A stretch of DNA of 64,000 nucleotides from Shigella phage sb1. A program made the position numbers and the translations under genes. Below are positions 59,925 through 64,000 of the stretch, piece by piece (position 1 is the stretch's first letter; every line of letters starts with the position of its first letter). The notes beneath the pieces are model-generated. The model did not search any database and was not told the origin of the DNA. It saw nothing but the letters and a program-made list of their open reading frames with translations. The stretch lies in the sequence record PQ666539; one strand, given 5' to 3'.

Positions 59925-61982
59925 CTACATCTTGAACTTTTTAGACATTCCGTTGATGTTAACCAAAGAAGCCAAGATTTGAGAAACTTCGTTTTCCTCT
60001 TCTTTTGATTCTTCTACAAGGAATTGATTAAACCCAGCCATTGGACGAACTTCACCAGTTTCCATTAGATGGTCGCCATCATATACCGATTCTTCTAATT
60101 GTTCAGAAGGAGGAACGATTGTGCCTTCGATTAGATACTTATTATAGGCAGTTTCTTTCATCATGTACGTGCTCACTTTATTAATCTTCAGCAAAATTCC
60201 ACGCGGTAGAATAACTTCAGCTTCTGATGGAAATCCTGATAAATGACCTGGAACGATAACTTTAATTCGCTCAGCTCCTTTTATTACCATGCCTACAATA
60301 GCTTCAGCATCTTCATTAGCATATGCAGAATGACTACCCATATGCATTAAATCTTCAGCATCAACAGAACCTTCTCCTTCACCAGAAAATACTGCACCTG
60401 AATCATCTAGAGCCATATAGTTTTTACCATGCTCACCGAAGATATTTGGTTTAAGCGACGTGGATACGAAGTTCTTAAAATAGAACATTTTATTTTCAAT
60501 ATTATGACGTAAAGTTTTAAAAGTAACTTCTTGCCCACGATAAAGCGTAGTTCCTGGAGGAAGAAATGATCCTTTGGCGAATGCAGAATCCAGCGTCTCG
60601 ATGTGTTTAATAGCTCGTTCCATGTATTCTTCACGGGTAGAATCTGGTTTACCCAAGAGGAACGAGTTCATTTCAACATATGAATATGCACAATAATCTT
60701 CAATTACATCAGACTCAGCCTGAGTTAATCCTTTTGGAGTTACTTCGGTGCTTGCATATTCATATGCCTGAGCAGCAGATTCATTAATCAATTTATAAAT
60801 GCCATTCATGACAAATCGAATAATAGCTACCTTTTCGTCTGGTGTGGCTTTAGAACCTTTAACTAAATCATTGATAATTTTCTTAATAACATCAAAGCTA
60901 TTAGAAATATTAATGTCAGCGAGATCGCTCAAAATTTTATCGGTTTTATAATCAAAGAATTCTTTATTCTTTAAATATTCTTGAGAACCTTGATATGTTA
61001 TATCGCTCTGCAGTCTGATAGACGGATCGCGTAAACGTGCATGGGCCAATGCAATATCATTTCGGAAGCTTTCTAGTTCATAATCGTTAGATTTAAAACG
61101 AGAAGCACTTCTCATACCACCGATAGCTCCTTTGCTGAAGTTGGAACCAATCTGAATAACACCAGAGTTCATTGGTCCTTCTGCTTTATATACCGGAACT
61201 TTAGATTCAAACTCTTGATATTTCTTGGCGGCGAAGCTATCGCCCTGAAGTGAAGCATCGACAGTAGAATATTGAGCTTGTGCTGCTAATCGACGGCTAA
61301 TTTTAGTTTTCTGAATAACAGCTTGATCCGTGCGCTTATCATTTTCTAAAGCAATAGAAGCAGCCACAGCAACGGCTTTAGGAACAGCATTACCTGTTTT
61401 AACATCTACATAAACATCACCAACCTTTGATTCAACTTTTGTGAATAACTAAGTTGAAATAGGAGGTACACCTGGAATGTCTTCTAAATTGGCATTTTTA
61501 CGGTAAACCATAATATATGCATACTTTTTATCATAATCCCAGATTTCTTTTAAAAGAACATATCGACCTGCTCCTTTAGTACGTACTAAAAGGTCAGCAA
61601 TAACTTGTATCTGACGAGCAGCGCCATTTGTTTTACTTTTTAGTACGCGGAATAGGCATGCGTCAATTTTATACTGTTTCATTGTTTGAAGAGCAGTATC
61701 AAAAACCGCATTAATGACACCAATTGGATTTCCACCCAAGTTTTTAAGTTTAACTAATGATAGTTTCTCATTGACAACTATCATTACGATATGCATCATT
61801 TTATCTCCTGGCTTAACGTTTTTATTTGTATCACCGCCAGAGGTGTATGTACAAAATCTAAATCCAGGAAGTACACTTTCTTCGCCGGCTTGAATAGCAA
61901 AAATTTGAGGTATTTTATGCTTAGGATTTAAGTTAACAACCGGCGCTGAAGCGCCGTCAAATAATTCTGTAATAAGTTCCAT
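59925..61982 (-). CDS. Alt-like ADP-ribosyltransferase paralog, interrupted by in-frame TAG at 61449-61451
   Basis: N-terminus MELITELFDG..., CTYTSGGDTN, and FKNFVSTSLKPNIFG STS motif; track ORFs 61449..61982 and 59925..61367 share frame. Confidence 0.8.
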
Positions 61983-61985
61983 GAT

Positions 61986-64000
61986 TTATCCTTGAACGAA
62001 CTTGTAAGGCATGTTTGTAATATCTATGCAAGACGCAATAATTCCAAGAGATGATTCTACTTTTTGTTTAACATTTGATGAAACAAATGATGCAAAGTCA
62101 ACTCTGTCTTCTATTTCAATATCATCCGTCATTGCAACTACTTCGCCAGTTTCCATTAGACGGTCACCGTCATAAATTACGGATTCGGTGAGTTCTTCCG
62201 TAGTCATAACTTCAGCTTGAATGAGCTTGTTGTTAGTTTTAGCTGTTCCATCATTGTAAGATGCGTCGGTTATTTTATTGACTTTGACCATCAATCCACG
62301 CGGCAAAATGACTTCCATTTCATTTGAAGGCGCTAAACTTCCACCTGGTAAAACAACGTTGACTTTATCAGCCCCAGTAATAACCCATCCAATTCCAACT
62401 AAATTATCGCTAGAATTAACAAGTCCTTCATCGTTTTTATCGATAGAAATGTTTAGACGCTTTTCGTCTGGTAAAACACCCACAGCTGAATCAGTCATCC
62501 AAGTACCAAAAATGTTTGGATATAATGATGTTGATACAAAATTTCTAAAATAAAAAACTCGATTTTTTACCAATGCTTCATATATTGAAGGTAACATTCG
62601 CTGTGAACGATATAAAGTAATACCTTTTGGCAGTCGATCACCGTTTTTAAAGGCTGAATCTAAATTATCGATGGCTTGTTCTATTTCTGGTGCTGTTAAA
62701 ATACTTGTACGCTCATCTGGATTATATAATCCCAAAAGAGCATTATTCATGTCTACATATCCTGAACCTACGTATTCACGAATTCCGCGTTTTTGTGCCG
62801 GTGTGTATTTAGATGAATCTTTATTTTCGACTATAGAATGCAATGACCATCCAACGGTAAGAGCATATCCACGTAATTCTCTTCGAATAATCTTTGTTTT
62901 TATTGCATTCCAAGAATTTTGCACTAACTCATTCGCAGCATCTTGATTTAAATGCGAATGCTTGTTAATATTTCTTTCTAACCAAGCACCTTTATATTTT
63001 TCTAAAGTATCATCAACTATAGAAGCAATAGTTTCTAAAGTTTTTATTGAAGTAATAGATTCTTTTCGTAATCTTTCTAAAGCTTTATTTTTTATTTCTG
63101 CATTAACATCAGATTCTTTATCTTCAGGAATTATAGAAGCTTCTCTGAATGCCATTCCAGCTGTAACACTATTAAGAGCATTCTCTAATGCAAATCCTGA
63201 AGTAGAAATAACAGTTAATTCGTTAGCATCAGAAATTAAAGGCGCGTCAGCGGGTTTATTTAATTCTGCTGCTGAAGCCTCAAATTTTTGAAACATTGGT
63301 GTTTCAAATCTAGAAGATTCCAATGACTGACTTTGTGCAATTGCTCTACGGGAAATTTTAACTTTAACGATTACAGCTTGGTCAGAACGTTTATCATTTT
63401 CTTGTGCAATAGATGCTGCAATTGCATCATTTTTAGTTACTTGAGCTCCAGTATCTTTATTGATATAAACATCACCGACCTTCGATTCAACTTTAGTAAA
63501 GAGCTCGGTACTAATTTCAGGAACTCCTGGAATGTCTTCTAGCGATACATTTTTGCGATGTATAAGAATATATGCATACTTTTTATCGTAATCCCAGAGT
63601 TCCTTAAGAAGGACGTATCTGCCACCTGAACGACTACGGATAAGTCTATCAGCAATAAGTTGAATTTGTCGAGCTTGACCAGCAGTTTTAGACTTAAGAA
63701 TACGGAGCATGCAGGCATCAATTTTATACTGACGCATCGTTTGCATCGCAACAGTAAAAACTGAATTGATGTAATTAATTGGGCTTGGACCGAGACCTTT
63801 CAATTTAGAAATTGAACATTTAGCAGTTAATGTAAAAGGAACAATATGCATCATTTTATCGCCCATCTTTAAATCGCGGTTAGTATCACCTCCAGATGTA
63901 TAGGTACACAAACGAAAGCCTGGTTGTTCAATTGCTTCATCAACATGAACTGAAAAAATTTGCGGTATTTTCTTTTTTGGATTTAAGTTTGTAATTGGAA
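61986..64000 (-). CDS. alt: Alt ADP-ribosyltransferase, 5' end beyond window
   Basis: near-identical to T4 Alt (…CTYTSGGDTNRDLKMGDKMMHIVPF…FRNFVSTSLYPNIFG…MPYKFVQG); frame open to window edge. Confidence 0.9.
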   Translation of the reverse strand, partial: PITNLNPKKKIPQIFSVHVDEAIEQPGFRLCTYTSGGDTNRDLKMGDKMMHIVPFTLTAKCSISKLKGLGPSPINYINSVFTVAMQTMRQYKIDACMLRILKSKTAGQARQIQLIADRLIRSRSGGRYVLLKELWDYDKKYAYILIHRKNVSLEDIPGVPEISTELFTKVESKVGDVYINKDTGAQVTKNDAIAASIAQENDKRSDQAVIVKVKISRRAIAQSQSLESSRFETPMFQKFEASAAELNKPADAPLISDANELTVISTSGFALENALNSVTAGMAFREASIIPEDKESDVNAEIKNKALERLRKESITSIKTLETIASIVDDTLEKYKGAWLERNINKHSHLNQDAANELVQNSWNAIKTKIIRRELRGYALTVGWSLHSIVENKDSSKYTPAQKRGIREYVGSGYVDMNNALLGLYNPDERTSILTAPEIEQAIDNLDSAFKNGDRLPKGITLYRSQRMLPSIYEALVKNRVFYFRNFVSTSLYPNIFGTWMTDSAVGVLPDEKRLNISIDKNDEGLVNSSDNLVGIGWVITGADKVNVVLPGGSLAPSNEMEVILPRGLMVKVNKITDASYNDGTAKTNNKLIQAEVMTTEELTESVIYDGDRLMETGEVVAMTDDIEIEDRVDFASFVSSNVKQKVESSLGIIASCIDITNMPYKFVQG

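Follow-up and report, generated by a model that had tools for sequence, protein, structure and literature searches.

A second Alt-family ADP-ribosyltransferase gene beside alt in Shigella phage sb1, a candidate effector reduced to a remnant in phage T4

The Alt protein of phage T4 (gpAlt, NP_049811; 682 amino acids) is an internal head protein, injected together with the DNA, whose target is Arg265 in the alpha subunit of RNA polymerase (PMC2988021, PMC5512222). ModA and ModB, T4 ADP-ribosyltransferases (ARTs) of 200-207 amino acids, are early proteins encoded elsewhere in the genome and, unlike Alt, are not injected from the head (PMC5512222). Duplication of alt has been noted before, by Nolan et al. 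in 2006 for T4 alt.-1/alt.-2 and for a full-length duplicate in 44RR (PMC1524935), and by Jin et al. in 2014 for JS98, Bp7 and Ac42 and for a split copy in ZZ1 (PMC4177764). Here we describe the alt locus in a 64,000-nucleotide stretch of Shigella phage sb1 (record PQ666539; hereafter the window), where positions 59925-64000 are taken up by two adjoining minus-strand genes of the Alt family. We call the upstream, T4-type alt gene altA (61986..64000; cut by the window end, so that its first 14 codons lie outside) and the downstream, second Alt-family gene altB (59925..61982; 685 codons plus a stop, with a TAG at codon 178). We consider it likely that, taken together, the data reflect a standard two-gene alt locus in which altB would encode a late, probably head-delivered ART with a distinct substrate set, and that the TAG in the window is the product of error or damage.

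The window belongs to a Tequatrovirus. It is collinear with Shigella phage pSs-1 (NC_025829, 63994-128034), with 96.1% identity over 64 kilobases (kb), and a megablast search with the alt region matched 503 phage records, nearly all of them Tequatrovirus. The gene order in pSs-1 is DNA ligase, alt.1, an Alt-like ART of 684 amino acids, an Alt-like ART of 685 amino acids, a 96-amino-acid hypothetical protein and, on the opposite strand, gene 54. T2 and T6 have the same layout, with a 697-amino-acid Alt followed by a 685-amino-acid gene labelled ‘hypothetical protein’, and in T4 alt is followed by the short open reading frames (ORFs) alt.-1, alt.-2 and alt.-3. By synteny with these four phages, altB sits between ligase/alt.1 and gene 54, which is the T-even alt position, and the locus represents the usual alt region of a Tequatrovirus with both genes in place, consisting of altA, altB, an alt.-3 homologue and a terminator.

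The tandem pair itself is already known and widely annotated. A tblastn search with altB residues 239-685 returned about 401 phage records at ≥95% identity, and the altB protein cluster has 772 member sequences. Among the closest described counterparts are the second genes of Tequatroviruses annotated ‘Alt-like RNA polymerase ADP-ribosyltransferase’ (pSs-1 gp209, YP_009111014; T2, BBF63359; T6, BBF63615), which are orthologues of 685 residues with the same synteny; 10 amino-acid changes, the amber codon among them, are private to the window copy. In 44RR (ORF187c), JS98/JS10, Bp7, Ac42 and ZZ1, too, Alt paralogues lie in tandem or in clusters beside baseplate genes (PMC1524935, PMC4177764), but these phages belong to other lineages with other degrees of divergence, and the ZZ1 copy is split and lies in the opposite orientation; the JS10 Alt (P0012) shares 52% identity with altB across residues 179-685, the part used as query. 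An earlier note on this DNA, made from the letters alone, had placed two tandem Alt-type genes at 59925..61982 and from 61986 to the window end. Both the coordinates and the family agree with the Pfam and PHROG matches given below, but the novelty attached to the pair was overstated, since some 400 sequenced phages, including T2 and T6, have it and it is often annotated ‘Alt-like’.

By identity, both genes are predicted to encode R-S-E (Arg-Ser-Glu) ADP-ribosyltransferases of the Alt type. The 670 residues of altA that the window contains are 95.2% identical to T4 Alt, which bears out the near identity stated in the earlier note, and altA is 99.1% identical to pSs-1 gp210. It matches Pfam PF03496 (ADPrib_exo_Tox; 117.9 bits, E=4.5e-34, with a family cut-off of 23.4 bits) and, end to end, phrog_802 (‘Alt-like RNA polymerase ADP-ribosyltransferase’), and its catalytic motifs LYRSQ, VSTSL and NEMEV lie at 62601-62615, 62523-62537 and 62310-62324, respectively (these and all altB positions below are on the minus strand). 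altB matches the same two families (PF03496, 70.4 bits, E=1.6e-19, covering residues 416-620; phrog_802, E=5.8e-252, residues 1-685), and a match to Pfam PF26846 (Tevenvirinae_ADPRT) is precomputed on the N-terminal module of altB orthologues; NCBIfam has no family for altA, altB or the 177-amino-acid fragment that precedes the TAG. The motifs MELITELF, CTYTSGGDTN and F(K/R)NFVSTSL(K/Y)PNIFG are common to the two proteins, so the sequences that had been quoted as shared do align.

The catalytic core of altB is complete. The window copy keeps Arg482 (in LYRGQ; 60537-60539), Ser507-Thr508-Ser509 (60456-60464) and Glu587-Ala-Glu589 (60216-60224), in R / STS / ExE order, and R482, S507, S509, E587 and E589 are invariant across 24 homologues, down to 33% identity. 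The earlier note had allowed that the downstream copy might lack the catalytic triad; it does not. These motifs align with those of Alt, ModA and ModB, yet altB is not a short early ART of the ModA/ModB type: it is 685 amino acids long, is built of three modules and belongs to the late alt operon, whereas ModA and ModB share the R-S-E core and have neither the N-terminal nor the central module.

A sequence search of the PDB with altB gave no match at E≤0.01. An AlphaFold2 model of an intact, 98%-identical orthologue (P0001; mean predicted local distance difference test score, pLDDT, of 78) starts with an alpha/beta domain, continues through a central region that is helical and well modelled and a catalytic domain of mixed alpha/beta structure, and ends in a low-confidence C-terminal tail. 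When the catalytic domain was compared by Foldseek, the matches were to Vis toxin (4XZK), C3 (C3bot, 1GZF), VIP2 (1QS1), CDTa (2WN7) and Certhrax (4GF1), with a probability of 1.00, with E-values of 4e-9 to 1e-5 (Vis toxin, C3, VIP2 and CDTa), and with target template-modelling scores of 0.6-0.72 for the single-domain ARTs Vis and C3. The catalytic domain of the orthologue thus models as a C3/VIP2/Vis-like ART fold. These C3-like and binary-toxin ARTs have the fold and an R / STS / (Q/E)xE motif in common with altB, but they are bacterial exotoxins that are only 13-20% identical to it in sequence and have other delivery routes.

altB has the three-part length and layout of T4 Alt, the same MELITELFD start, an R / STS / ExE ART domain and an acidic tail with the motif YDGDHLMETGE, and it occupies the same operon and genomic position. 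It is nevertheless 42% identical to altA and T4 Alt overall, with identity falling from 67% over residues 1-238 to 18% over residues 239-415 and 37% over residues 416-640, in line with the earlier description of a copy that shares the N-terminal region and is diverged elsewhere. The N-terminal module (residues 1-238; 61269..61982), shared with Alt, begins with MELITELFD, in which Glu6 is invariant. It is followed by a central helical module without detectable homology to the centre of T4-type Alt (residues 239-415; 60738..61268), by the ART domain (residues 416-625; 60108..60737), and by the acidic C-terminal tail (residues 626-685; 59928..60107), most of which is modelled with low confidence (pLDDT <50 at residues 628-665 and 679-685), although YDGDHLMETGE is kept in both copies.

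Profile-profile comparison (hhalign) of the altB-type and altA-type families gave strong matches for the N-terminal module (E=1.6e-95) and the ART domain (E=1.5e-44) and, for the central ~177 residues, no detectable relationship (probability 0.3%, E=0.18). The identity of this central module to T4 Alt, 18% in the pairwise alignment, is 11% in the family alignment, and AlphaFold2 models it as all-helical with pLDDT of 80-94. Within the ART domain, the stretch from STS to ExE is 20% identical between the paralogues, and the loop preceding ExE reads GFPSEAE in altB versus APSNEME in Alt. In C3-like ARTs, the region of the ADP-ribosylating turn-turn (ARTT) loop contributes to substrate choice, and an E-x-E motif goes with arginine specificity. 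By analogy with T4 Alt, we infer that the N-terminal module of altB may serve head incorporation and processing; the T4 head reviews consulted do not give the Alt cleavage site. The central module is a candidate specificity or regulatory module. Recent gene conversion was considered as a source of the N-terminal similarity and rejected, as the DNA repeats that the two copies share reach only 70-72% identity.

Comparison with T4 accounts for the short ORFs that follow alt in that phage. The proteins of T4 alt.-1 and alt.-2 (NP_049810 and NP_049809) are nearly exact matches to residues 1-54 and 62-117 of altB, and the DNA of the T4 segment can be aligned, with ~96% identity, to window positions 61635-62118 and 59430-59944. 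What T4 is without is the intervening 59945-61634 (1,690 base pairs, bp), a clean deletion around which the rest of the locus aligns and at whose junction the two alignments overlap in a 9-bp direct repeat, ACTTTTTAG (T4 NC_000866, about 123104-123112); T4 has also lost a single nucleotide, and the resulting frameshift splits alt.-1 from alt.-2. Because T4 lacks these 1,690 bp and carries the frameshift within sequence that is orthologous and in the same position, we conclude that altB is the full-length gene and alt.-1/alt.-2 its remnant, with the same position in the genome but with only the two N-terminal segments left of the gene that is full-length in the window. The annotation of the T4 record describes alt.-1/alt.-2 as an apparent duplication of the initial part of alt. 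The earlier note had tentatively linked the downstream copy to alt.-2, and both the protein and the DNA alignments support that link, with alt.-1/alt.-2 being the decayed N-terminal remnant of altB; it had also raised the chance that the copy is a standard T4 gene of known function, whereas alt.-1 and alt.-2 are hypothetical ORFs without one.

Among relatives of sb1, altB appears to be well maintained. An intact 685-amino-acid altB was present in all five genomes or contigs checked (pSs-1, T2, T6 and two IMG/VR contigs), 96.9-98.2% identical to the window copy. The ratio of nonsynonymous to synonymous substitution rates (dN/dS) among altB orthologues from independent genomes was 0.03-0.04, as low as or lower than that of altA, which indicates that in these relatives altB is under strong purifying selection over the whole gene. 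It is also more uniform than altA, since the T2 and T6 altB proteins are ~97% identical to the window altB, and the T2 and T6 Alt proteins only 71.5% identical to the T4-type altA of the window. The first alt gene is polymorphic in this respect, the T2 and T6 Alt (697 amino acids; L009 7798-9891 and L010 10359-12452) being the diverged alleles relative to window altA (61986-64000).

Two chimeric Alt proteins were found. In one (P0008; L011 5001-7061, on a Logan SRR19633722 contig), the N-terminal module is 97% identical to T4 Alt, and the centre, ART domain and tail are 97-99% identical to altB; its gene is in the first alt position, directly after alt.1, and the contig ends just past it. The second (P0003) has a mosaic N-terminus. 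These chimeras suggest that recombination may take place between the tandem paralogues.

The arrangement of the two genes bears on when altB would be expressed. The altB ATG follows the altA stop codon (TAA) after a spacer of 3 nucleotides (61983..61985, minus strand), and its Shine-Dalgarno sequence, AAGGA, lies inside the 3' end of altA, an arrangement that implies that the two genes are co-transcribed and their translation is coupled. No T4 late promoter (TATAAATA) was found on the minus strand within 59500-64000; in pSs-1, TATAAATA is located just upstream of altA, after a hairpin. Because of the short spacer with its Shine-Dalgarno sequence, the lack of an internal late promoter and the late promoter upstream of altA in pSs-1, altB is almost certainly expressed from the late transcript of altA.

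In the window, the altB frame is interrupted. An in-frame amber codon, TAG (61449..61451, minus strand), replaces GAG (Glu178). The underlying substitution, G>T on the coding strand, is private to the window; codon 178 is GAG in every relative examined (pSs-1, T2, T6 and the two IMG/VR contigs). The earlier note had described a gene of 685 codons, which is correct for the span and length (685 codons plus the stop) but not for the open frame, as the TAG was overlooked and splits it into ORFs of 177 and 480 amino acids in the ORF listing. When every pSs-1 protein was mapped onto the window, 28 in-frame stops and no frameshifts were found in otherwise full-length genes, including those for the large terminase (two stops), the major capsid protein, the tail sheath, gp5, gp6, gp29 and gp48 (examples are at 3074, 17212, 34975, 35461, 36125, 43617, 55897, 57684, 59588 and 61451). 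All but three of the stops (25/28) arose by G>T or C>A. Over its whole length, the window differs from pSs-1 by 364 G:C>T:A changes and by 113 in the reverse direction, whereas the other substitution classes, transitions included, are directionally symmetric, and among window-private changes in the 55-64 kb interval, polarised with four relatives, there were 23 G:C>T:A versus 3 T:A>G:C.

These data argue that the altB amber is not specific to the gene, because 27 other in-frame stops carry the same G:C>T:A signature, and damage or error is the simplest reading, because a phage with all three kinds of nonsense codon in essential genes would not be viable. The signature looks like oxidative G>T-type damage or sequencing error, or like a mutator or population consensus, rather than a viable genome; the TAG in altB is most likely sequence damage or an artefact, not gene decay, and a real, specific inactivation of altB in this phage is unlikely. 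Programmed readthrough or suppression of the amber was considered and rejected, as no suppressor transfer RNA (tRNA) is present among the 10 tRNA genes in the window and TAA and TGA stops also occur in essential genes.

Two other accounts of the interruption were weighed. altB might be a true pseudogene in this phage, the amber being a real mutation and an early stage of the decay that T4 completed; the in-frame TAG, the loss of altB in T4 and the annotation of fragmented alt genes in Shigella phage sb4 all fit with this. It is hard, however, to reconcile with stops of the same signature in several essential structural and packaging genes, or with a window copy that has no frameshifts or deletions and that, apart from its 10 private substitutions (the amber among them, and about half of them G>T), is 98% identical to intact orthologues, and we regard it as quite improbable. 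Still harder to credit is a natural split into a 177-amino-acid N-terminal module and a 480-amino-acid ART fragment restarting at the GTG at 61367. The ORF listing does give products of these two lengths, and Acinetobacter phage ZZ1 offers a precedent with its 229-amino-acid N-terminal Alt-like ORF and 463-amino-acid C-terminal ORF (PMC4177764), but the break is a single G>T change private to the window, the start of the 480-amino-acid ORF is an internal GTG 27 codons downstream, within conserved coding sequence, and an exact look-up of the 177-amino-acid product in public assemblies returned no record, so that this account has next to no weight with us. Returning to damage or error as the source of the TAG, it follows for other users of this record that apparent pseudogenes in the window should not be taken at face value, since the G:C>T:A signature puts stops into essential genes.

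What an intact altB would do can be outlined from T4 Alt and from the motifs that altB retains. It is plausible that altB encodes a second late-expressed ART that differs in specificity and is probably packaged in the head. It would be transcribed late with altA. Judging from the N-terminal module that it has in common with Alt, from the invariant MELITE start and from the known behaviour of T4 Alt, its product would be built into the prohead, undergo trimming and be injected along with the DNA; once injected, it would mono-ADP-ribosylate arginines of host proteins using NAD+, as the E-x-E motif predicts; and its set of substrates would differ from that of Alt, to which the replaced central module and the diverged active-site loops point. 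More specifically, and tentatively, altB may represent a second arginine ADP-ribosyltransferase that is delivered from the head and has a main host target other than that of Alt, e.g. a translation, metabolic or defence protein, with the T-even Alt family forming a polymorphic effector system; we see this as possible but would not count on it. Such a system would consist of a conserved, exchangeable N-terminal delivery module combined with interchangeable central and ART modules, and it would account for the chimeric proteins with an altA-type N-terminus and an altB-type C-terminus and for the T4-type and T2/T6-type altA alleles. The loss of the gene from T4, the phage used as the model, would explain why a second effector was never studied.

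The ART domain and its surroundings also admit of different interpretations. altB could be redundant with Alt, acting on the same main target, RNA polymerase alpha Arg265, and serving as a backup or to enlarge the injected dose. Common family, operon, N-terminal module and arginine-type E-x-E motif would be expected in that case, and T4 manages with one copy. On the other hand, a redundant enzyme fits poorly with a central module without detectable homology to that of Alt, with only 20% identity from STS to ExE and with different loops before ExE, and the ~97% identity of altB across T2, T6 and this phage, against the 28% difference in altA, suggests that the two genes are under separate constraints; we find redundancy doubtful. 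A structural or scaffolding role for altB, as a paralogue of Alt without catalytic activity, seems highly improbable: some duplicated ARTs do lose activity, but nothing specific favours this for altB, and it runs counter to the invariance of all catalytic residues across the family, the strong purifying selection on the whole gene and the ART fold modelled with pLDDT around 80-94.

Several considerations weigh against a second, head-delivered enzyme with its own target. altB is formally interrupted, and if the window is a faithful genome, the full-length protein would not be made. The late promoter on which late expression depends lies beyond the window and was observed in a relative only, pSs-1. 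T4 grows well without altB, which makes the gene dispensable at least on laboratory hosts. Low identity in the central module is no proof of a different target, and Alt itself is promiscuous. Finally, Alt is known to be packaged in the head, to be injected and to modify RNA polymerase alpha Arg265 (PMC2988021), whereas the searchable literature (on function, virion proteomics and the T2/T6 homologues) contained no experiment on any altB orthologue; it yielded only the genome papers of 2006 and 2014 in which duplication is mentioned, the one T2/T6 hit, the RADAR paper, being spurious.

Downstream of altB the locus continues with a strong promoter of the sigma-70 or T4 early type (59896..59924, minus strand; TTTACA, 17 nucleotides, TG-TATAAT; 11/12 consensus positions, with an extended -10), which directly abuts the altB stop codon and reads into the alt.-3 homologue, and whose sequence is the 3' end of T4 alt.-2. 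The alt.-3 homologue (59586..59864, minus strand) corresponds to a 96-amino-acid protein in T4 and pSs-1 and ends 4 codons early in comparison with both, owing to a private TCA>TAA change at 59586-59588. Beyond it, a bidirectional hairpin terminator (59548..59569; a 9-bp stem in which 6 pairs are G-C, and runs of T on either strand) marks the boundary between gene 54 on the plus strand and the alt operon on the minus strand. Gene 48, which encodes the baseplate tail-tube cap (364 amino acids; 57486-58580, plus strand), has a TAC>TAA change at codon 67 (57684-57686) that splits it into 66 and 296 amino acids, a further case of the G:C>T:A signature and one that strikes an essential gene. Elsewhere in the window, a minus-strand cluster at 9561-10388 holds the 10 tRNA genes, for Arg, Asn, Tyr, Met (CAT), Thr, Ser, Pro, Gly, Leu and Gln. 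T4 has 8 tRNA genes, and the Asn and Tyr tRNAs of the window would presumably be extra relative to that set.

As a genome finding, the tandem pair is ordinary: it is conserved, often annotated and described in the literature, and the biochemistry of altB poses a question of modest scope that can be put to the test, not a surprising one. If, however, altB is an injected enzyme with substrates of its own, then T2, T6 and most Tequatroviruses would deliver two different host-modifying enzymes at infection, not the one that is known from T4. This would bear on how different hosts are taken over or disarmed, and on the choice or engineering of therapeutic T4-like phages.

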